From positions 1 to 34,841 of the forward strand of contig CAZWDO010000031.1 in NCBI GenBank assembly GCA_964632485.1: DNA of 34,841 nucleotides, in the 5' to 3' direction. The notes under the pieces were generated by a model, which did no database searches, was not told where the DNA came from, and saw only the letters and a list, made by a program, of their open reading frames with translations. Positions within the stretch are counted from its first letter, which is position 1; each line of letters opens with the position of its first letter. Made by a program: the position numbers and the translations under genes. This stretch comes from an uncultured bacterium (GTDB lineage: Bacteria; JAGOEH01). Shown in pieces: positions 7,041 through 34,576 of the stretch.

Positions 7041-7075
7041 AAAAAAGGCGGACACACTGTGTGAACCCGCCTTTT
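7041..7075. terminator. Intrinsic terminator downstream of the sigma54 activator gene
   Basis: AAAAGGCGG...CCGCCTTTT inverted repeat with A/T tracts on both sides. Confidence 0.7.
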
Positions 7076-7154
7076 GAAGTGATCCATTAGATTTATCGAA
7101 GATCTGTTTTTTAACCTTACAATAATTTTTTAGGACGGAATGCAAGGTTTATCA

Positions 7155-8534
7155 TCAGCTTCTACCGTCCTGTTCAGGTAGTTTGATATGGTACTTATGA
7201 ATTTTCCGATATAGGGTGGACTTATCAATTTTTAAATCTCTGGCCGCGGCCGCCCGATTAAAATGATTTCGCGCCAGCGTATCTTCAATCATTTGCTGCT
7301 CTGTATTCCATTTTGCATGCTGAAAGCTTAACCCCAAGTCCGGATGGTTGTTTTTCAGGGGTTCCGGTTTTTTGCTCAAGTCAGTGGGTAAAGAATCAAT
7401 ACTAATTATTTTTTTCGGGCTCAGTACGACCGCCCGTTCAACAATATTTTCCAATTCCCGGATATTTCCCGGCCAATCATAATCCAAAAATAGCGCAAAA
7501 ACTTCAGAAGAGAATCCGGCAATCGATTTATGAAGAGTTTGATTATATTTTTCGAGAAAATGCTGGGCGAGCAGAGGAATATCTTCTTTTCTTTGGCGTA
7601 AGGGCGGGATTTCCAGAGAAATGATGTTGATCCGATAAAACAAGTCCTGACGAAACGTTCCATTTTGAACCATCTCCTTTAAATTTTTATTTGTAGCGCA
7701 GATAATTCGAGCATTTGTTTTTTCTGAACGGACAGCCCCTAAGGGATCGTACTCATGCTCCTGCAGCACCCGCAGCAATCGAACTTGTAGAGCGGGAGAA
7801 ATTTCACCGATTTCATCCAGAAATAACGTACCGTTTTCAGCCAGCGCAAAACGTCCCGGTTTATTTTTATCCGCGCCGGTAAACGCTCCTTTTTTATACC
7901 CGAAAAGCTCAGATTCCAGTAATGTATCCGGCAATGCTCCGCAATTAATTGCTACAAACGGACCATCCCCGCGCGAACTCTGTCGGTGTAACGCGCGGGC
8001 TAGCAATTCTTTTCCCGTCCCCGTCTCTCCCTGAATCAATACAACGCTAATACTGGCGGCTATAACTGGAATCACCTCGCTAAGCTTAGCCATGGAAGGA
8101 CTATGGCTCAGCAATTCACCACCGCCAACTCGCGCAACTATTTCTTTGCGCAGGCTCTCAATTTCAGTCAAATCACGAAACGTCTCGGCTCCACCCATAA
8201 TGTCGCCATCCTGATCACGCATGACAGCAGTTGAAACACTAACAGGAAGACGATTCCCTTTAAGATCGATTATATAGCCATGCTGATTGATCAAGGGTTT
8301 GCCATTTTTAAATGTCTTACGAAGAGGACAATCTTGTTCACACATATTTGATTTGAACACTTCGCAACAAAATTTGCCTAACGCGTCTCCCCGCTTGATA
8401 CCTGTAATTATCTCTGCTGCCCGATTAAAATAGGTTATTTTCCAATCTGGATCAACAGTAAACACCCCGTCCGAAATACTTTCTAAAATTATTTCAGTAA
8501 TCAACGTTTTATTGGACATATCATTAAAATCCAT
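7155..8534 (-). CDS. PAS-domain sigma54-dependent activator (OrpR-like)
   Basis: PAS with Cys cluster (FCCEVFKSNMCEQDCP), GETGTGKE, GAFTGA, LFLDEIGE, C-terminal Fis-type HTH; start could be 8519. Confidence 0.93.
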   Translation of the reverse strand: MDFNDMSNKTLITEIILESISDGVFTVDPDWKITYFNRAAEIITGIKRGDALGKFCCEVFKSNMCEQDCPLRKTFKNGKPLINQHGYIIDLKGNRLPVSVSTAVMRDQDGDIMGGAETFRDLTEIESLRKEIVARVGGGELLSHSPSMAKLSEVIPVIAASISVVLIQGETGTGKELLARALHRQSSRGDGPFVAINCGALPDTLLESELFGYKKGAFTGADKNKPGRFALAENGTLFLDEIGEISPALQVRLLRVLQEHEYDPLGAVRSEKTNARIICATNKNLKEMVQNGTFRQDLFYRINIISLEIPPLRQRKEDIPLLAQHFLEKYNQTLHKSIAGFSSEVFALFLDYDWPGNIRELENIVERAVVLSPKKIISIDSLPTDLSKKPEPLKNNHPDLGLSFQHAKWNTEQQMIEDTLARNHFNRAAAARDLKIDKSTLYRKIHKYHIKLPEQDGRS

Positions 8535-8665: not shown

Positions 8666-9262
8666 ATGGACAAAAAAACGATTCAGGAAGACCGTATCCG
8701 AAATTATTTTATCGATGCGGCGAGAGATATCATCCGCGGCGAAGGAATCAACGCGATCAGCGCGCGCAATGTAGCGGACCGGGCCGGCTATTCATACGGT
8801 ACGCTATATAACTATTTCAAAGATATCCGGGATCTGATTTTCCAATGCGCGCAGGAATTTATGTCGGAATGTCGTGAATTTGTCATAGAGCAAAGCGCCG
8901 GAGCCGCCCCGGGAAGGGAGCGATGCCGTATCATCTGCCGGGAATATGCAAAATTTTTTATTCAATACCCAGGCATTTTTGAGTTGCTTTTCACGCAAAA
9001 ATTGACGGATATGGCAACTTCTGATTCGGAAGTAACAAAGATCGATACTCTTTTCGATTCGCTTATTGCTGAAGAGATCAACACCCTAGCGGCTGAAGAT
9101 CTCCGATCGGCAGGGAATGGGGGTTCAGCCGGTAATTCGCTAAAAAACCTGAAATTTTCCTTGCATGGATTGCTGATGCTCACTATATTCCGCCGCCATC
9201 CCCTTCCCTTTCCGGAGTTAATGGCGGAAATCGATCAATTAGTCGAGATTTGTCTAAGTTAG
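8666..9262 (+). CDS. TetR/AcrR-family regulator
   Basis: N-terminal HTH SARNVADRAGYSYGTLYNYF; 198 aa. Confidence 0.92.
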   Translation: MDKKTIQEDRIRNYFIDAARDIIRGEGINAISARNVADRAGYSYGTLYNYFKDIRDLIFQCAQEFMSECREFVIEQSAGAAPGRERCRIICREYAKFFIQYPGIFELLFTQKLTDMATSDSEVTKIDTLFDSLIAEEINTLAAEDLRSAGNGGSAGNSLKNLKFSLHGLLMLTIFRRHPLPFPELMAEIDQLVEICLS

Positions 9263-9319
9263 CAGAATTATGTTCCGAATCCGAAAAAAGTGATAAGCGC
9301 CTATGATGCTCAGTGATTT

Positions 9320-10177
9320 TTAAATGCCATTGCACATATAACCTAAGGATTGCATCATATCTCCATGGACCGAAACAATTCGCCTGGCTAGATCGGGGGG
9401 CAATTCATCGCGCCAACTATTCGCCTGACCGCGACGAAAGAACACTCCCTTCGATGTCGGGGGGCGTTCCCGAAATCCGTTGGCTTGTTCCTGGCGTTTC
9501 AACTCAGAAATATCTGAAAAAGCGATCGCCTGGCTCAATTTTTCAGGATCAAACGGCAATCCACAGAATTTAACCACGGATTCAAATGTCGATTGCGGAT
9601 CGGCAAGCAGGTCTTCATAACGCGTTACTGATACGGGCGTTGTAGATTGACTCAGCCAGCTCCGAACATGATCGCTCCAGGACCCCAGCCTCTGAGTCAA
9701 TTGGTCGGCCAATGCATAACCGCCCCGCGCCAACACAAAACTGGAATCGCACAGATTATCAGTGGCCTTCTCCAGGCTGATCCCCCAATGATGGGCGCAG
9801 GAAGCGACCAGATCGAGGGGATTGCGAACGATGTACAGAACGCCGGCTGTTATTTCCGGAGGAAACAAGGGTTCGCGACTATCGGTCAGATTCCAGGCAT
9901 CATGGGCTTTTAAAAAAAGAATCCCCTCATTCTCCCGCGCGATACAGCGATAAACCTCCGGACGCAAGCGTTCAATGATGTTTTCCGGCAGAGAGGATGC
10001 CTCTACGCCTGCCCATTCGTCGAACCATACCCGCGAACTGGCAATCGGCCCTCCTTCCATACTACTGTTGATATCGGCCGGGGCATCCCTGTCTCTCATA
10101 TAGTTCGTAAGGAAAATCCGCATCCAGGTATTGCCGGATTTAGGATAAGACGCCAGCCAAATAATCTTAGCCGGCAT
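9320..10177 (-). CDS. PAPS-dependent sulfotransferase (lasso cluster tailoring enzyme)
   Basis: 5'-PSB loop LASYPKSGNTW, KAH, 3'-PB motif YIVRNPLDLVAS, RYEDL, FFRRG; ATG 10177 overlaps the end of the upstream kinase gene. Confidence 0.92.
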   Translation of the reverse strand: MPAKIIWLASYPKSGNTWMRIFLTNYMRDRDAPADINSSMEGGPIASSRVWFDEWAGVEASSLPENIIERLRPEVYRCIARENEGILFLKAHDAWNLTDSREPLFPPEITAGVLYIVRNPLDLVASCAHHWGISLEKATDNLCDSSFVLARGGYALADQLTQRLGSWSDHVRSWLSQSTTPVSVTRYEDLLADPQSTFESVVKFCGLPFDPEKLSQAIAFSDISELKRQEQANGFRERPPTSKGVFFRRGQANSWRDELPPDLARRIVSVHGDMMQSLGYMCNGI

Positions 10178-11093
10178 TAATAATCTCCGCAATTTCCTGA
10201 GCAGTCCATTTATCCGCCGGGCGTTCGACATAATAGACGTCAGCTTGAACGGCGGTAGCTGTCATCAGTGGGAAAATCCTCTGCTGATCCTCTGGCGTGA
10301 GTGGACCATAAATCCCTTCAAGCAGCATTTTGAATCGTGAATTGCCACTCAGGTAAATTATACGCAGCTTCCCGCACCGTTCATGGCTCAGATAATAGAT
10401 CGCCTGCAAAGGGGGTAGGGGTTCATTACTGAAGCCGATAGGTTCACCCGGAAACATTTTCAGAAACATTTTATCATGTCGCAGTGGATTCCGCGTCAGA
10501 TTCCGTGTATCGAAGCCCAGCCGTTCAGCGGCATGAGGAAAAAGCGCGATACGGGGAATGCCCGGGAGAACTTCCACAACGTTTCCCGTTCCCTGACGAA
10601 GAGCCGTGATATCGTCGGTCAACGGCATTCCTCCAAGGTTGACAAGAGCTGCTTGAGTGGTAGATTTTCCGGATCCGGATTGCCCGATCAGCGCCACCAC
10701 GCCACGCGGAACTGACACGGCGTTTCCATGAAGCACCAGTAATCCACGTTGGTTTAAAATCGCAGCCATCACATTATGTAAAAAATAATGAACCACCCGC
10801 TCCATATCCGCTTGCGGATTAAGTTCGAGGTCAACCTGTGCGCCATTCTTTACTAAAAATCTCCCGGCGCGTCGGCCGCAGCACAGCAGAAACCCTTCCC
10901 CTGAAATCTGCCAGGCAAATCCATATTTCCAGGAAAAATCGGATGCAATCGGTTCTAAAAGCTCCCGGGGAACGGAAGCGAAACTCACAACCACATCCGC
11001 CTTTGAGTTCCCGGGTGCAACAACAAGTTCAGGGCACGGAAACGGCACACTCATAATTAAGCCGTAAAGAGTATATAAATATTCAGAATTCAT
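10167..11093 (-). CDS. HPr-kinase-like lasso peptide kinase (PadeK-like), copy 2
   Basis: YTLYGL...CPEL N-terminus, LHGNAV, Walker A GQSGSGKST, LTDD. Confidence 0.85.
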   Translation of the reverse strand: MNSEYLYTLYGLIMSVPFPCPELVVAPGNSKADVVVSFASVPRELLEPIASDFSWKYGFAWQISGEGFLLCCGRRAGRFLVKNGAQVDLELNPQADMERVVHYFLHNVMAAILNQRGLLVLHGNAVSVPRGVVALIGQSGSGKSTTQAALVNLGGMPLTDDITALRQGTGNVVEVLPGIPRIALFPHAAERLGFDTRNLTRNPLRHDKMFLKMFPGEPIGFSNEPLPPLQAIYYLSHERCGKLRIIYLSGNSRFKMLLEGIYGPLTPEDQQRIFPLMTATAVQADVYYVERPADKWTAQEIAEIINAG

Positions 11094-11944
11094 TATATAT
11101 TGCCAATCACCCTATCTACTAATTCCTCCACGCACCAGCGGCCCTTTGGACGGCGTAACCGATAGATCGGTACCGCTTGGGCCAACCGGGTTATCATACT
11201 AAAATAGGCCAACCGGTCAAACAATTCTTCAGCGATATGGCTGTTGTAAGTCAATCGTCCTAAGGATGGTACCCGCTCCAGCGCAGCCACTTCACTGAAT
11301 TCGATTTGATCCCGAGTGGAGACAGAAAGGTGGTAGATTGATTTTAATGTAAGCGGCCCAGCAGCCATTTGGCTGGCATAGTCAACTGTTCGCGGACCTT
11401 TTTCTCCGGGAAAGGGAAATCCGGATTTTTTAGCGCCATCCGGCCATAAGATTACCTCAGGGAAGGTCGGGATCACCGTCAACCTGCCAGATACATCTTC
11501 GTGAACAATGGACAACTCATCCGCAAGCAAACGGGCGCCGCGCTTTAGCAAGCCGGTTAGCAAAACCGATTTTCCTGCTCCCGAATCACCCGCCAGCAAG
11601 ACACACTCATCTTGATCTGCAATCGAAATAGCGGCGGCGTGAAATGCGGGAATTCCACGCTGGAAACAAAGGGCCGCCAACGGGGTCATACGCAGAAACC
11701 GGCGAATATCCTCGACTGCAGACTCTGGCGCCGCATCAATGGTAATCCGACTGCCACCCTCCACCATAAAGCGAGCTACTTCGGGCACTTCCAGAAGAAA
11801 ACGGTTCCGGGCGGCCTGCCACAACACTCCCCGCCCATCGATTTTATCCAGCGCAGTCGGCGCTGGCGCTACCTCTATCCGCGCATCAGGAAACAAATCG
11901 GCTAAAATTTTTTTTTCAAAATTCCAATCCAGTTGAGAATTCAT
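11093..11944 (-). CDS. HPr-kinase-like lasso peptide kinase, copy 1
   Basis: FHAAAI, Walker A GDSGAGKS, LLADE; start overlaps the cyclase stop codon (ATGA). Confidence 0.85.
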   Translation of the reverse strand: MNSQLDWNFEKKILADLFPDARIEVAPAPTALDKIDGRGVLWQAARNRFLLEVPEVARFMVEGGSRITIDAAPESAVEDIRRFLRMTPLAALCFQRGIPAFHAAAISIADQDECVLLAGDSGAGKSVLLTGLLKRGARLLADELSIVHEDVSGRLTVIPTFPEVILWPDGAKKSGFPFPGEKGPRTVDYASQMAAGPLTLKSIYHLSVSTRDQIEFSEVAALERVPSLGRLTYNSHIAEELFDRLAYFSMITRLAQAVPIYRLRRPKGRWCVEELVDRVIGNI

Positions 11945-13815
11945 TTATCATCCACCGATTCAAAAAAATTATTGATAAAAATTCCGGCCATAATTCCGCG
12001 GGTAAGAACCGTTACCGCCAGACGATAAGATTCAGGACTATTCTGAACTCGAATTATATCCCAAACCCGACGCATATAGGGCACATCCAGATAAGTGGAC
12101 GCAGGGCCTCCCGCAAGTTCCCCCAAAGCCTCATCCACTTCTCCGGCGCATATTCGCAGCCGGGGGACCAGATCAGCAGATTGCCTCCCGCGATTGCGAT
12201 TTAACCGGACTTCATCCGGCAACTGGCCCCGCATCGCTTCCCGAATCAACCATCGGTCGCAACCGGTTTCCGGATCGATAAAGATTCGGTCCGGCACTGA
12301 AAAAGTAAAGGCCAACACCCGGGCATCAGCGGTCGGATCACGGGTATCCACTCCATAAACTGCGTTTTTTTCAGCGGCGAGAGCGCCAATAAAATTCCTC
12401 CCCGGCTTAAGTATCGCAAACCGTTTTTCCATGGCTGTATATGTTAATCGATCCGTTGCCGCCATCATAAGCTCCCGCAATTGAAGTCGATTGGCGAACT
12501 CAGGATGAATTGAAGAGAATTTCCAATATGAAGTGGTCGGATAGCGTAACGTATGGTATATCTTCAGAATAGACTCGGGAGCATGATGTTTCATCATCTC
12601 CTTCATCCAATTGCGAAGTTTCAACAATCGTAATTGCAAGACCAGCGACTGCGAAAAAACATCCCCCGACCATGATATGCCCGCGTTGCCCGCTTGGCCA
12701 GTCAACAACACTCGGCATCCTTGCTCATGGACTTTTATCATAATATCTTGAATCCAAAAAAAATTGGCGGCTGCATGGCCAGGTTCGCCGTTAATCTCCA
12801 GTTGTCGGCGAATCGCCTGAATTGGACTGACATTGGCGGCAGCTATCGGAAAAAGGTCGATAGTTCCAGCCGCTTGGGCCGTTGCCTGAGCTAAGGAGAA
12901 TTCATCTCCAAAATTGCGTTTATTGAGATAATCCCTGCTATCAGCCATTGGCACTGAAGTAAAAGCGTAAAGGCGTTTATTTTCAGCTCTCAACAATCGA
13001 GCGGCTGTAATGGCTACCGAACCGGAATCCAATCCACCGCTCAACGATACGGCAATTCCCCCGGTATCACCTGCGCCACTCATATCCGGCAAGCGCAACC
13101 GCGCTACAACAGCCTGTTCAAATATCTCCCTGAATGCTTCGGCATAATCTCTACGGCGAGGCAAATTCAACTCAGCCGTATCCTCCAGTCGCCAATAACA
13201 ACGGGTTTCAAGCCGTTCCGGCGTCACCGTTAGGAAATGAGCGGGAGGTAGCCGCTTGATTGGAAAATGGATAGTGCGCTCGCCATGATAGGCCGACCAG
13301 GAGACCAATAGCTGCGCTAAATAGAGTTCGTCGATTTCTACCGGGGCAAGATTGAGAGATAGAATCGCCCGTCGCGAAGAGGCAAAGACGAATATCCGGG
13401 GATCGGCATAATAATAAAGAGCGGTATTTCCGAAATGGTCCCGAGCCAATACTAAACGGCGTTCAGTCGGATGCCAGGCAGCAAAGGACCAATCACCATA
13501 GATTTGATTGACAACTGTCTCTCCCAATTTATAATAACAACGGCACAACAATTCACTGTCCGGCATTGAAATGGATTCATTCTTACTGACGCGGCATACT
13601 TCCAGTAGTTCCTTACGGTTGTCAATCCTCCCGGCTCCTGCAAACATCGCTCCGTTTTCCAGCGCGATATACCCCCCACCCAACGCGGTGGAACCTTCTA
13701 CCCTGGCTTTGCCGCCACTAATTTCCCAGGGTTTCATCAGGCGACACAATTGGTGGACAAACGAAAAATTCGCCGGGCTTCCATCACGTTGATAAACGCC
13801 GCAAATACCCATCAT
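11941..13815 (-). CDS. Lasso peptide cyclase (asparagine synthetase-like C protein)
   Basis: PP-loop SLSGGLDS, LARDHFG, LLTGQAGN, RDPTAD; begins MMGICG and so lacks the Cys2 glutaminase nucleophile of AsnB; next to precursors and B2. Confidence 0.9.
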   Translation of the reverse strand: MMGICGVYQRDGSPANFSFVHQLCRLMKPWEISGGKARVEGSTALGGGYIALENGAMFAGAGRIDNRKELLEVCRVSKNESISMPDSELLCRCYYKLGETVVNQIYGDWSFAAWHPTERRLVLARDHFGNTALYYYADPRIFVFASSRRAILSLNLAPVEIDELYLAQLLVSWSAYHGERTIHFPIKRLPPAHFLTVTPERLETRCYWRLEDTAELNLPRRRDYAEAFREIFEQAVVARLRLPDMSGAGDTGGIAVSLSGGLDSGSVAITAARLLRAENKRLYAFTSVPMADSRDYLNKRNFGDEFSLAQATAQAAGTIDLFPIAAANVSPIQAIRRQLEINGEPGHAAANFFWIQDIMIKVHEQGCRVLLTGQAGNAGISWSGDVFSQSLVLQLRLLKLRNWMKEMMKHHAPESILKIYHTLRYPTTSYWKFSSIHPEFANRLQLRELMMAATDRLTYTAMEKRFAILKPGRNFIGALAAEKNAVYGVDTRDPTADARVLAFTFSVPDRIFIDPETGCDRWLIREAMRGQLPDEVRLNRNRGRQSADLVPRLRICAGEVDEALGELAGGPASTYLDVPYMRRVWDIIRVQNSPESYRLAVTVLTRGIMAGIFINNFFESVDDK

Positions 13816-14053
13816 CGAGGGATTTTCCGCTCTTTATTAAAAGTAAAATTCCAATTTGAATTTATAATCCACCTCATAATTATTCTTAAAAAATGATTGT
13901 GTTTCAGAGTATTAAAAACAAAAAAATGGAGCGCGTTAAATACAAATTTTATAGTAAATTACTAATTAACCAAGGGGAAGTCTTTGTTTTAATAACTATA
14001 AAAATATTCACTGTCAAACCGCGAATAGCTCATATACTGTGCTTTTCAATACA

Positions 14054-14242
14054 TTAATTTGGCGCCTGTGAGCCCGTATTTCCATCATTAATCGAACCAT
14101 TCAGAAACAACGTTCGTTTCAGGCTGATCAGAGTTAGGACAGGTCGATTCCAAGGCAAACGTGCCAATTGCACGGAAAGGAGGAGCTGATTCTCCCTGGG
14201 GCTCTCAATCAGCGTTTCAGATCGGCAGAGTTCATCATTCAT
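14054..14242 (-). CDS. Lasso peptide precursor A1 (predicted core FLNGSINDGNTGSQAPN)
   Basis: AGAGG RBS; leader motif WNRPVL; Thr at -2; only acidic core residue is Asp8. Confidence 0.85.
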   Translation of the reverse strand: MNDELCRSETLIESPRENQLLLSVQLARLPWNRPVLTLISLKRTLFLNGSINDGNTGSQAPN

Positions 14243-14612
14243 ATTTTTCCTCTTTAAACAGTTGTATAGTTAAAAAGGGAACTCCGTTTCACATTATTAA
14301 ATTTTTTTTAAAAAAACTTTGCTCATAAACACAACAAACAAAACCCGATTCATTTCCAAACCGTTCTTATATTAAAATTACGTGCCCTGAGGTACCGTGG
14401 TGCTAAAACTTCCATCACCGAAACCTCCTGAGCCATTCATAGTACGTTTCAGGCTGATCAGGGTCAGGACAGGGCAATTCCAAGGCAGGCGCGCCGATTG
14501 CCCGGCAGTGGGGAGCTGAATCTCACTGTGGCTCTCAACCAGCGTTTCAGATCGGCATAGTTCATCATTCATATCTTTCCTCCATAGAAAGTTGTATAGT
14601 CAAAAAAAGTAA
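14108..14612. repeat. Tandem duplication (330-bp offset) of precursor leader and upstream region
   Basis: About 14108-14282 aligns with 14438-14612, including GTTGTATAGT at 14261 and 14591. Confidence 0.85.
14378..14572 (-). CDS. Lasso peptide precursor A2 (predicted core NGSGGFGDGSFSTTVPQGT)
   Basis: GGAGG RBS; leader motif WNCPVL; Thr at -2; only acidic core residue is Asp8; leader 34/45 identical to A1. Confidence 0.85.
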   Translation of the reverse strand: MNDELCRSETLVESHSEIQLPTAGQSARLPWNCPVLTLISLKRTMNGSGGFGDGSFSTTVPQGT

Positions 14613-14624
14613 CAGCAATACCTT

Positions 14625-15161
14625 TTATTCAAATTTTTTAACGCATTTTGAAGAAAACGTAGAGAGTACCGTAAAGCGTTCATGACCAGAATAACCGGTA
14701 AGGATCATATCCCCACAACGCAACCAGGCATGAGCCGCAAAATTTTCCGGTTTCGTGTTATCCTTTGCCAGACCGAGATAAAGCGTACCTGCAATATCGT
14801 ATCGTTTTAACATCCATTGGGCAGCAATTGCCCTCGGCAGGCAGACCGTTTTCCAAGGAGTGCGGCTTGCGGCAGTCCCAATCGCTCGGCTGATCATCCG
14901 TGCGCGAATCCGGGCGTCAACACCCAGGTAAGAATCCGATTCAGTCATGGATTCACCGATAGTGGACGCTAACCACTTAAATGGAAAAAACAGCAGACAT
15001 ACCCGCGCAACACATACAAATATCCAGGCTTCCACTAACAATTTACGCTCAAACCGCGAACAATAGCGCCATTTGACATAATCACCATAGATATTCGCCA
15101 TCCGTTTACTCATATTCATGGCTAAAAAACGTCTGTTTAATTCTATTGACAGTTCATACAC
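14625..15161 (-). CDS. Lasso peptide leader peptidase (B2, transglutaminase-like)
   Basis: CLPRAIA (catalytic Cys), LYLG, AHAWL (catalytic His); true start may be ATG 15119, 15113 or 15101. Confidence 0.92.
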   Translation of the reverse strand: MYELSIELNRRFLAMNMSKRMANIYGDYVKWRYCSRFERKLLVEAWIFVCVARVCLLFFPFKWLASTIGESMTESDSYLGVDARIRARMISRAIGTAASRTPWKTVCLPRAIAAQWMLKRYDIAGTLYLGLAKDNTKPENFAAHAWLRCGDMILTGYSGHERFTVLSTFSSKCVKKFE

Positions 15162-15269: not shown

Positions 15270-15297
15270 AATATAATAAAAAATTCCTGAATGTCAA
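15270..15297 (-). promoter_or_regulatory. Putative sigma70 promoter of the lasso cluster
   Basis: Minus strand TTGACA-N16-TATATT upstream of B2. Confidence 0.5.
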
Positions 15298-31636: not shown

Positions 31637-34576
31637 TTATTTCATCAGCAGCATCTTGCAGGAGCGGGAGAAAACGCGCCCGTCGATGAAGGTCGCCCGC
31701 AGGCGGCAGAAATAGACCCCGCCCGCGTGATGGCCCGCCTCCCACTCCAAGGCATGGCGGCCCGCCGTGTAGCGGCCAACCGCCAGAATCGCCACCCGGC
31801 GTCCCAGCAGATCATGCACGCTCGCTTCGACCTGCGCCGCCTCGCTCAGGCTGAACACGATCTCCGTGCGCAGATTGAACGGGTTGGGATGGTTCGCCTC
31901 CAGCGTCAGCCGGAACTTCAGAACGGCAACTGTCGACTCGTCCAGTCCCGTCGCCTCCGCGCTCCACAGCGTATCCCCCACATTGCCCGCCAGATCGAGG
32001 GCGGCCACGCCCCAGCGTCGCGTCTCGCCGTTGGCCACGTTGTCATCCCAAAACGACGTCTGCTCATAGCCGTCCAAAAGCAACTCTACGCTGTCGCCGA
32101 GCTGCCGCACCAGGCGATAGCCCGCCCAGTCGGCCGCGGCGCAGGTGCTCCACGCCACGCGCACGCCCGCATCCTCCAGCGCCAGCGAGACGCTGTCTGC
32201 CATTGGCGGGGCGACCGTGTCCCGATCGCCTTCGTCCCGCGTGTGCGCGTGAAGCATCGCCGTCAGTTCCCCGCCGTCGATGCCCACAGCGCAGATCGAC
32301 ACCTCGTACTCCGTGCCCGGACACAGGGGGCGCAGGATCAGCCGATGGCGTTTCCCCAGGGTCTCCCCGCCTACGGTGACCGGGTCCTCGTCGCTGCCTG
32401 CGGGACGGTAATCCGCCCACGCCCGCGTCGGGATCGCGCTCTCCCACGTCATAATCACCAGCGAATCCGCCGTGTAGCTCGTGTCGGGATGCGACACCCA
32501 TGCGAGGGAATCGGAACTCCCGGCGGTCGTATCCAGGGTATCCACCCCGCCACTCCATACCTCGTTGTCGTCCGGATCGCAGCTTCGAGCCCGGTAGAAG
32601 TAGCGGCGTCCCGATTGCAGGTTGTTTAGTACGATCAGATGTTCCTCTTCGAAGGCGGGATCGGCATAGAGAAACGGCGCAGGCAATGACGTATAGTTGT
32701 CCAGGCTCACCCGCGAATCGCACGGCAGGTCAGTGCTCCACCACACCAGGGCATAGCCCTCCCCGCTAAAGCTTCGCGGCGCTTCGGTCACCGTCGCCGC
32801 CACCGGCGCGTGATCGCGGCGCGTGGTGAATTCCACCGCGCGTTCGTATTCCGTTTCATTGCCCGCCAGGTCCGATATGCGCACTGTCACCCGATACGCC
32901 GTTCCCGGCTGCAGGCGCGTCAGCCACGCCGAGGCGCGATAGGCGTAGCTCTCGCTTTCCGAGAGAAACACCAGCGAGCCGTCGGCGGCGCGGCCTTCGA
33001 TGCGGGCGCGCGTCGGCTCGCCGCTCTCCCAGCGCAGCAGCGCCGTGGAATCATACACCAGGGCCACCCGCGGCGGACGCGTGAACAGCGGCGGTTGCGC
33101 ATCGGCCTGGGTATTGGTGGTGAAGCTGTTGTTCGAGCCGGCCGGGGATTTCAGCAGGCCCGCGCGCGCCAGCAGCGACGGTTCCCCGCCCCACTCGGCC
33201 GCGTTGCCCGAGGGGTCTTCCAACAGCAGACGGAAATCGTAGCTCGTTCCCGCCCGCAGAGGGGAGAGGATGAAGGCATGGGCGCGCTGAAAATCCTCGT
33301 TGACAAGGGTATCGCGCTCCGCCGAGCCGCTTTCTCCGTAGATCAGCGTCGCCCGGCACGCCTCGTCCGTCTCTAAGGCGATATAGGCCCGGGTGTCCGT
33401 CAGCTCCGCGTTCGGACCCTTGACGATCAGCGGCGGCTGCTCATCCGCGGCCTCGCGCGCGCGGAACGGATACGCGGCGGGCATCTCGGCCAATGTTGCC
33501 GAAAGTTCGGCAACCAGTCCCAGGCGCGCGAAGTAGGATTCCCCGGCAAGCAGGTCGTCGAAGGCGAAGGCATGGTCCAGCGCGGCCACGCTGTCGATCA
33601 GGATTGTCAGCGGTTGGGAACTGTCGGCCGCGGTGTAGAGGGCCGCGCCCGCGCGCAGGGCGACGTCGGTCGCGAAGGTGATCGTGGCCGCCTTAGAGCC
33701 GATATAGCTGAAGGCGGGTTTGCCCCTCAGCGGAAAAACCTTGGGGATGCGCGGCGCCACGGTCTCGAAGGCGAAGTCGTATGCGCTGTCCATGCAGGTC
33801 GTATCGTCGAGACAGAGGATCAGCCGACCTTCGTATGGCGTTTGAGGCATCAACCCGGAGAGGGTCTGCTCCGCGCGGAAGCGGGGTTTGCCCGCGACGC
33901 GCAGGGACTGCCACTCCCCGCCGGAGAGGGGCCGCCATTGGAGCGAGCAGACGGCCGGGAGTTCCGCGCGCCAGCCGAGGGTGACGGCGCTGTCTGAGGA
34001 CGAACGTGTCAACACCGGCTGGGTCAGCGCGATGTCCAACGCCTCTGTCTCGAACCGGCGCGCTTCCGACCATGTTCCGTCGGTGGCGAAATTGTCCCCG
34101 CGCGCCCGCCAGTAATACTCCTTGCGATAGCCGAGGCCATGAGCTTGCCAGAGCGTATCGGTCAGGGCCGTATCGCCGGTGATGATCGTTTCGAAGGCGC
34201 TGTCCGCGCCGATTTGGATGCGGTAGCTCGCGCAGGAATCCACCCCATGCCAGCGGAAAACAAAATCCGCGGCCAAATCGAGGGCGCCGTCTGCGGGTTC
34301 GGCCAGCAGCGGCGCGGCGGGCGTCGGACGGTGGTAGGTCGTGCGGGCGAGCGAATCCATGCGTGTGATAATCGTCGCGCCGGAATAGCCGTATATGTAG
34401 AGCGTATCGCCGCGCTGCGCCAGTTTGCGGACACTGTCGATCAAGATACGTCGTTCACTTCCCGCGAGGTAGCGATCCACCTGGTAATAGTTATCAGCGA
34501 GCAAAAATCCCGCCATGACCAGGATCAGGAAGAGAACCTGTTTCGCATAGCGGGTGTACGGCGCATTCAACTTCAT
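31637..34576 (-). CDS. Secreted multi-FN3-repeat protein with C-terminal T9SS/FlgD-like sorting domain
   Basis: GGAGA RBS, signal peptide, repeated FN3-like units (A-x-I-x-W-x-T-D ... L-x-P-G-T-x-Y), C-terminal NHPNPFN...DLLGRRV...GVYFCRL...KMLLMK. Confidence 0.88.
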   Translation of the reverse strand: MKLNAPYTRYAKQVLFLILVMAGFLLADNYYQVDRYLAGSERRILIDSVRKLAQRGDTLYIYGYSGATIITRMDSLARTTYHRPTPAAPLLAEPADGALDLAADFVFRWHGVDSCASYRIQIGADSAFETIITGDTALTDTLWQAHGLGYRKEYYWRARGDNFATDGTWSEARRFETEALDIALTQPVLTRSSSDSAVTLGWRAELPAVCSLQWRPLSGGEWQSLRVAGKPRFRAEQTLSGLMPQTPYEGRLILCLDDTTCMDSAYDFAFETVAPRIPKVFPLRGKPAFSYIGSKAATITFATDVALRAGAALYTAADSSQPLTILIDSVAALDHAFAFDDLLAGESYFARLGLVAELSATLAEMPAAYPFRAREAADEQPPLIVKGPNAELTDTRAYIALETDEACRATLIYGESGSAERDTLVNEDFQRAHAFILSPLRAGTSYDFRLLLEDPSGNAAEWGGEPSLLARAGLLKSPAGSNNSFTTNTQADAQPPLFTRPPRVALVYDSTALLRWESGEPTRARIEGRAADGSLVFLSESESYAYRASAWLTRLQPGTAYRVTVRISDLAGNETEYERAVEFTTRRDHAPVAATVTEAPRSFSGEGYALVWWSTDLPCDSRVSLDNYTSLPAPFLYADPAFEEEHLIVLNNLQSGRRYFYRARSCDPDDNEVWSGGVDTLDTTAGSSDSLAWVSHPDTSYTADSLVIMTWESAIPTRAWADYRPAGSDEDPVTVGGETLGKRHRLILRPLCPGTEYEVSICAVGIDGGELTAMLHAHTRDEGDRDTVAPPMADSVSLALEDAGVRVAWSTCAAADWAGYRLVRQLGDSVELLLDGYEQTSFWDDNVANGETRRWGVAALDLAGNVGDTLWSAEATGLDESTVAVLKFRLTLEANHPNPFNLRTEIVFSLSEAAQVEASVHDLLGRRVAILAVGRYTAGRHALEWEAGHHAGGVYFCRLRATFIDGRVFSRSCKMLLMK

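Follow-up and report, generated by a model that had tools for sequence, protein, structure and literature searches.

Lasso peptide gene clusters in which a kinase stands beside a sulfotransferase have been described before, and they are the closest known systems to the cluster analyzed here, which lies on the minus strand at positions 9320-15161 of contig CAZWDO010000031.1 from an uncultured bacterium (assembly GCA_964632485.1); the whole contig, 34,841 nucleotides long, is referred to as the window. Letzel et al. 2014 (PMC4289311) report that certain lasso clusters of anaerobes also carry an HPr kinase and a sulfotransferase, whose roles were unclear, and their table includes Geobacter uraniireducens Rf4 (Gura_1351). 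A 2021 review (PMC8498205), in the portion available and citing Zhu 2016c, mentions a putative sulfotransferase gene in kinase-type lasso clusters and describes how PadeK, ThcoK and SyanK phosphorylate the C-terminal Ser of the linear precursor, and Popov et al. 2026 (PMC13381572) present the WxxP motif as one that paeninodin-like precursors almost always keep. The literature searched yielded no characterised sulfated lasso peptide, in agreement with the initial annotation of this stretch, which had been made from the sequence alone; supplements of earlier mining papers could hold more.

We propose that the stretch is a lasso operon of the kinase class belonging to a widespread subtype with two kinases and a sulfotransferase, probably transferred, which has lost the gene for its PqqD-type precursor recognition element (RRE) and whose maturation either needs an RRE supplied in trans or fails; this is the reading that we favour, with some reserve. 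The subtype is known in print and widespread, and its chemistry is uncharacterised; what is new here is a copy without its cognate RRE in a barely sampled phylum. Seven genes, all in one orientation, were recognised in the order B2-A1-A2-C-K1-K2-ST, where B2 designates the leader peptidase, A1 and A2 the precursors, C the cyclase, K1 and K2 HprK-like kinases and ST the sulfotransferase (B1 being the PqqD-type RRE of related loci):

14625..15161, minus strand: B2 leader peptidase, a transglutaminase-like Cys protease; 178 aa on the longest open reading frame (ORF); NF033537, PF13471
14378..14572, minus strand: precursor A1, 64 aa; profile, ribosome-binding site, alignment
14054..14242, minus strand: precursor A2, 62 aa; profile, ribosome-binding site, alignment
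11941..13815, minus strand: lasso cyclase C, Asn-synthetase-like, 624 aa; SGGLDS PP-loop, lass_lactam_cya
11093..11944, minus strand: K1, P-loop kinase of the HprK/PEPCK fold, 283 aa; weak Hpr_kinase_C match, Walker A, model, tree
10167..11093, minus strand: K2, paralogous P-loop kinase of the HprK/PEPCK fold, 308 aa; weak Hpr_kinase_C match, Walker A, model, tree
9320..10231, minus strand: ST, sulfotransferase of the type using 3'-phosphoadenosine-5'-phosphosulfate (PAPS), 303 aa (285 aa from the ATG at 10177); PF00685, 97 bits

The co-oriented genes were thus all found where the initial annotation had placed them, and domain, profile and alignment evidence bore out its assignment to the lasso type, with a pair of precursors, a pair of HprK-like kinases and a sulfotransferase. 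From C to ST each gene overlaps the next, by 4 nt (C/K1), 1 nt (K1/K2) and 65 nt (K2/ST, on the longest ORF; 11 nt if ST begins at the start of the 285-aa database gene call P0001), and translational coupling of the genes is supported.

B2 matched the NCBIfam model lasso_biosyn_B2 (NF033537) with 90.1 bits, the cut-off being 33, and Pfam Transglut_core3 (PF13471) with 88.5 bits; across family members Cys107 is present in 29/29 and His144 in 28/29. Its longest ORF starts with GTG, an in-frame ATG 14 codons downstream being also possible, and the genome has a single B2. The top NCBIfam model for the cyclase was lass_lactam_cya, at 241.6 bits (under the 525 cut-off of that model), against 126.7 bits for asn_synth_AEB, the true asparagine synthase, which is the opposite of the grouping with AsnB enzymes that had been named as grounds for giving up the lasso assignment. 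It shares 57% identity with the cyclase of the closest related locus, L008, and is the only lasso-type cyclase genome-wide, scoring 1010 bits vs 129 and 116 for two other Asn-synthase-like ORFs. The locus therefore shows a B2, a cyclase distinct from AsnB and, across 48 related loci, the synteny of lasso clusters.

A1 and A2 appear to be a tandem duplicate, since each has GGAGGAAA placed 6-7 nt ahead of its ATG together with an identical upstream box; their 45-residue leaders are identical at 34/45 positions, while their cores differ. The A1 leader (residues 1-45) contains LPWNCPVL and, at its end, T44-M45; the predicted cores are NGSGGFGDGSFSTTVPQGT for A1 and FLNGSINDGNTGSQAPN for A2, in both of which residue 1 would be joined to Asp8 to close the ring. 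A profile seeded from A1, A2 and one relative retrieved 40 small ORFs adjoining cyclases across 31 genome loci, with E-values of 1.9e-18 for A1 and 4.5e-17 for A2, and in an alignment of 20 precursors W31, P34 and D53 were invariant and T44 (position -2) nearly so. Both sequences carry the [Y/W]xxPx[L/V/I] leader motif, the Thr at -2 and an Asp/Glu at core position 7-9 (D53, that is Asp8); A1 and A2 are bona fide precursors of a large family, not chance ORFs. By analogy with characterised lasso pathways, B2 would cut after Thr(-2)-x and the cyclase would then close a ring of 8 residues between the freed N-terminus and Asp8, leaving tails 11 and 9 residues long. For the dehydrated cores the calculated monoisotopic masses are 1753.754 (A1) and 1686.760 (A2), to which each phosphate would add 79.966 and each sulfate 79.957.

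The A1 core ends in Thr and that of A2 in Asn. At two-kinase loci the cores end in varied residues, one of them (L034) in Ser, and at Smithella-type single-kinase loci they are consistently Ser-terminated; as the two cores studied here do not end in Ser, the kinase target must be an internal Ser or Thr, for which there are six candidates in A1 and three in A2. Family cores have an almost constant Gly4 with a Ser adjoining it at position 3 or 5, and neither of the two predicted cores contains Tyr. In L008, three precursor-like ORFs (7074-7214, 7450-7584 and 7779-7865) have the family leader followed by cores of 6-7 residues with no Asp8, and no other frame lengthens them; either they have degenerated or they encode a different, very short product.

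The set of 48 related loci consisted of 31 from a cyclase search (one genome per species) and 17 from a metagenome scan that used a four-sequence K1 alignment, all of them annotated with profiles from clear members. K1, K2 and ST are found as a set in 18 of these loci, which come from Desulfobacteraceae, Geobacter, Desulfuromonadaceae, an unplaced 'delta proteobacterium' metagenome-assembled genome (MAG), three Solirubrobacterales MAGs and metagenome contigs, and their phyla include Desulfobacterota and Actinomycetota; four pairs among the 18 are near-duplicates (L015/L055, L009/L056, L065/L066 and L068/L069). The cluster studied here, with orthologues of both kinases plus ST, belongs to this subtype. 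The gene set is thus not unusual, and the combination is already in print in the parts available of PMC4289311 and PMC8498205. ST adjoins a K1-type gene in 23/24 related loci, the exception (L061) being a 1,720-base contig ending inside K2, and a K2-type gene occurs alone, with no ST, in L011, L017 and L020. The closest relative, L008, has B2< A> A> C> K1> K2> ST> B1>, L013 has A-C-K1-K2-ST-B1-B2-ABC, and the uncultured Geobacter locus L009 has C-K1-K2-ST-B1.

The kinases matched general models weakly: Hpr_kinase_C gave 18-24 bits against a cut-off of 33.3, and TIGR00679 gave 20-22 bits against one of 240. Their Walker A is intact. They are therefore not HPr kinase/phosphorylases proper, which would give a full-length match and have HPr as substrate, and what they have in common with these is the fold and the P-loop; an HprK-like kinase within the cluster is nevertheless a feature shared with the paeninodin type. 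Invariant residues are G119, S121, G124, K125, H102 and D142 in 24 K1 sequences, and G137, S139, G142, K143, H122 and D160 among K2 orthologues. With the P-loop, His and Asp of HprK-type kinases kept, both K1 and K2 look active, as judged from sequence, and by analogy they would phosphorylate Ser/Thr hydroxyls of the linear precursor. AlphaFold models reached a pLDDT of 92.6 (K1) and 92.4 (K2). Foldseek gave PEP carboxykinases (PEPCK) as top matches to these models, HprK/P standing lower (rank 37 for K2), and profile searches of PDB sequences with K1 and K2 ranked HprK first; HprK/P and PEPCK share one fold. In a quick tree, with SH-aLRT supports only and a careful search unfinished, the K1 clade had a support of 100, the K2 clade 99 and their sister grouping 90, and the two kinases of this cluster fell within the K1 and K2 clades respectively; the sister grouping suggests a duplication inside the lasso kinase family.

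ST matched Sulfotransfer_1 (PF00685) with 97 bits and the profile of its own family with 486 bits. Invariant in 18 sequences are the PKSGNTW loop (5'-PSB, W25-W36), K108/H110, R136/S144 and FFR266-G268-W273, motifs that we take to be the 5'-phosphosulfate loop, the 3'-phosphate motifs and the catalytic His. All PAPS-binding residues and the catalytic residue appear to be kept, and the enzyme is predicted to be active; the genome has an APS kinase (212.9 bits), so that PAPS can be made. Its closest solved relatives by sequence are Teg12, Teg14 and StaL (PDB 3mg9, 3nib and 4eec; E 5.8e-19 to 1.2e-12). Of 8000 database candidates that were scored, 7262 matched ST at E <= 0.001; the 119 homologues listed besides its own entry are 57-64% identical to ST, and among the matches listed P0034, named Geotalea uraniireducens, is 60% identical. 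No relative of ST was found among 60 other genomes, nearly all of which are related to the host only at the domain level.

Longer homologues numbered 170 at E <= 1e-20, and in the best 120 of them (P0121-P0240) ST is fused to an HprK-like domain in 117, mostly in the order kinase-ST and in some as ST-kinase; of the remaining three, one joins ST to a lasso-type cyclase (P0127, 897 aa), one is a double ST and one is ST alone. GxxxxGK[ST] is kept in 115/117 of the fused kinase domains. These domains were considered as K1 orthologues, which profiles prefer in 115/117, but the assignment was rejected as the quick tree gives them a separate clade; the tree is thus silent on whether K1 or K2 partners ST, and that pairing rests on co-occurrence. 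The fusions and the co-occurrence together indicate that kinase and ST form a coupled evolutionary unit, and by analogy ST, acting as a unit with an HprK-like kinase, would put sulfate on the peptide.

It could be argued that ST acts on some other metabolite and is a mere neighbour of the lasso genes, given that no core residue is linked to its presence, that the cores have no Tyr and that its nearest solved relatives sulfate glycopeptide aglycones. ST, however, lies within the operon and overlaps K2, 30 of the 48 related loci, from several phyla, have it next to lasso kinases, and its longer homologues carry the kinase and cyclase fusions just described; we find this explanation scarcely credible. 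Because the cores lack Tyr, ST would have to place sulfate on an aliphatic Ser/Thr hydroxyl or on some group introduced earlier. We tentatively suggest, while rating it as rather unlikely, that an HprK-like kinase and ST make up a coupled tailoring unit that sulfates an aliphatic Ser/Thr hydroxyl of a lasso peptide, or the phosphate added by the kinase; to our knowledge, sulfate at either place has been shown for no ribosomal peptide. If true, in A2-like cores, which have no bulky tail residue, the charged group could be a plug keeping the tail threaded.

Regarding the host, its phylum is represented by three species in the genome set, the other two having neither B2 nor this ST, which accords with the initial annotation in placing it outside the usual producers. 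The best cyclase relatives are from Desulfobacteraceae (57%), Geobacter (54%) and Brocadiaceae (53%), and the GC content of the cluster is 48.4% vs 43.8% for the genome, within the top 7.8% of 6-kb windows. The cluster was probably acquired through horizontal transfer, because its nearest relatives are Desulfobacterota-like, its GC content is raised and it is missing in the other genomes of the phylum.

What sets this copy apart is the place where relatives have B1. A B1 gene lies beside ST or B2 in 16/16 related two-kinase loci with an uncut flank (about 13 distinct ones after near-duplicates), and the two loci without B1, L056 and L070, are on contigs that end exactly at that position; here ST is directly followed by a convergent TetR gene, and both the RRE usual in lasso clusters and the cognate B1 of the two-kinase subtype are missing. 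Misassembly was considered as the cause and rejected, as independent Logan contigs bridge 9262-9320: one from run X1 (record 2) spans 9013-9469 with zero differences, and one from run X2 (record 12, a second sample) spans 9066-9686 with 34 differences in 621 bases, about 94% identical, and has the same TetR-ST junction. Coverage in X2 and X3 left gaps in parts of the stretch.

One way of accounting for this is a pathway that is free of an RRE, in which B2, or a kinase by means of its N-terminal domain, reads the WxxP leader directly. In each kinase about 100 residues precede the P-loop domain, beta-rich and confidently modelled, and among related loci L017 has no B1 in its flanks and L018 has a B1 without a B2. 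But B1 persists in relatives that have orthologues of K1, K2 and B2, so these proteins are evidently no substitute for it, and the N-terminal domains were rejected as RREs because Foldseek matches them to PEPCK-type folds and not to a winged helix. We regard such a pathway as very unlikely.

The reading that we favour calls instead for an RRE supplied in trans by a paralogue, most plausibly a 95-aa PqqD protein encoded on contig C4; otherwise there would be no maturation. Genome-wide, four other ORFs match the B1 profile and a separate search gave five PqqD matches. Two cassettes with such proteins were examined:

G000:C4:200673-200960 (L046:8674-8961, 9028-10749, 10931-12139), minus strand of C4: C4 PqqD/RRE and neighbours, from profile matches
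G000:C5:133123-135861 (L047:5124-7862), minus strand of C5: C5 cassette, PqqD 157 aa - HprK-like 350 aa - NTP_transf_5 - GT2 - GT2

The C4 PqqD scored 74.8 bits on the NCBIfam model lasso_PqqD_Bac (cut-off 80), vs 60-61 bits for the in-cluster B1s of L008 and L013. A complex prediction of C4 PqqD with the A1 leader gave a score of 0.54, the best control reaching 0.02, with three runs agreeing in 100% of contacts and a partner pLDDT of at least 53, which lends weak support to the pairing. The mark applied is reached by 116/157 solved complexes and 2/215 mismatched pairs, and at scores of 0.60 or less by 18/157 solved complexes and both of the passing mismatches; these counts hold roughly, as custom alignments were used, and since RRE-leader complexes have already been solved the pass may reflect memory. 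No precursor, cyclase or B2 was found near the C4 PqqD, nor any convincing [YW]xxP small ORF beside the C4 and C5 cassettes.

Several observations weigh against the favoured reading as a whole. Neither the B1 profile nor PF05402 detected a B1/PqqD gene in the window, which is the whole 34.8-kb contig of a genome assembly with 97.95% completeness, and among the flanking genes in it no exporter adjoins the cluster. Both cores lack the terminal Ser of the paeninodin type, and a core residue linked to ST was sought and rejected, Gly4-Ser5 being present without ST as well (L020, L025). The fused kinase domains are not nested in K1, and the rise in GC content is only moderate. With respect to supply in trans, the C4 PqqD is 29-36% identical to family B1s, which are mutually 50-59% identical; on these values it was rejected as a relocated cognate B1 and is seen as a paralogue. 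It lies, moreover, in a cassette with a 573-aa GT-C/PMT_2-like membrane glycosyltransferase and an NTP_transf_5 nucleotidyltransferase, and in PMC13381572 the RREs of co-resident systems are shown to have evolved against cross-talk and to discriminate against one another's leaders.

Some of the same facts can be read as the marks of an inactive remnant, B1 (and any exporter) having been lost after transfer, the leader no longer being presented to B2, and the intact frames reflecting a recent loss. The missing B1, present in every uncut relative, points in this direction, as do the absence of an exporter nearby and the degenerate look of the nearest relative, L008, with its short cores lacking Asp8. 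On the other hand, the seven genes are full-length with their catalytic residues retained, both precursors keep W, P, D and T(-2) along with strong ribosome-binding sites, and a lasso-type RRE paralogue is present in the genome; the TetR-ST junction shared by the contig of about 94% identity from the second sample, in turn, suggests that the form without B1 persisted through some divergence. An inactive remnant is in our opinion possible but doubtful. Between these considerations, the earlier claim that the cluster makes two phosphorylated and/or sulfated lasso peptides stands only in part: the lasso genes, the kinases and ST are present, while the making of the products is doubtful for this copy because the cognate RRE kept by its relatives is missing. 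Nor are the cores Ser-ended. With no cognate RRE and no nearby exporter, product formation by this copy is uncertain.

Two further features adjoin the operon:

15270..15297, minus strand: sigma-70-like promoter candidate upstream of B2, TTGACA-16-TATATT; consensus match only, 11/12
8666..9262, plus strand: convergent TetR-family regulator standing where relatives have B1, found by domain search; its membership of the cluster is putative

The TetR gene was not seen beside the related clusters scanned. It is one of the flanking genes, along with a sigma-54 activator, an adenylate cyclase and a Na/Ca exchanger. A2 is separated from the cyclase by a 238-nt AT-rich spacer (13816-14053) in which no terminator was flagged; the ratio of precursor to enzyme could be set there, for example via partial termination. 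Other genes of the window encode Fe-S MinD-like proteins, a B12-radical SAM enzyme and PAS/GGDEF signalling proteins, and the type IX secretion tail domain is matched 124 times in the genome; this gene content fits an anaerobe of Bacteroidota-related groups. At the contig end, a 979-aa ORF (31637-34576, minus strand) has a local GC content of about 66%, vs 43.8% for the genome, with fn3 and purple-acid-phosphatase-N matches and a sub-threshold type IX secretion tail.

A very large family of lasso clusters contains sulfotransferases, some of them as fusions, while lasso sulfation remains undemonstrated in the literature searched; working out a single member would establish a new tailoring chemistry and show why kinase and sulfotransferase are so frequently joined. 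The copy described here extends the family, probably via transfer, to a candidate phylum that has barely been sampled; its precursors cannot use the known C-terminal Ser site, and as a natural version without an RRE it tests service by a paralogous RRE in trans. Complete relatives such as L013 are a better experimental starting point than this copy.

When compared with known systems, the cluster shares with the paeninodin type (PadeK, ThcoK) and the proteobacterial polyphosphorylated SyanK type, as presented in PMC8498205, a split B1/B2 (in the relatives), an Asn-synthetase-like cyclase, an HprK-like tailoring kinase and a WxxP leader. It differs from both in having two diverged kinases plus a sulfotransferase and cores that are not Ser-ended, and in this copy B1, an ABC exporter and a nucleotidyltransferase are all missing from the cluster; the in-cluster ABC exporter of the paeninodin type does have a counterpart in the relative L013, where an ABC transporter follows B2. 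The clusters of Letzel 2014 and Zhu 2016c show the same enzyme combination, the genes being only named there and no product described in the text accessible. P0034, by its Geotalea uraniireducens name, may belong to the Gura_1351 cluster.

Teg12, Teg14 and StaL likewise belong to the PAPS type and modify a peptide natural product of constrained shape; in their case the sulfate goes onto phenolic hydroxyls of aglycones that are non-ribosomal. Lastly, the systems for linear polyphosphorylated peptides (LPP) of Bacillota combine, according to Popov et al. 2026 (PMC13381572), an RRE, an HprK-like kinase and a nucleotidyltransferase, and in this they resemble the cyclase-less C4 and C5 cassettes of the host; they have no cyclase or B2 and use a signal-peptidase-like protease, whereas the cluster described here has both a cyclase and a B2.

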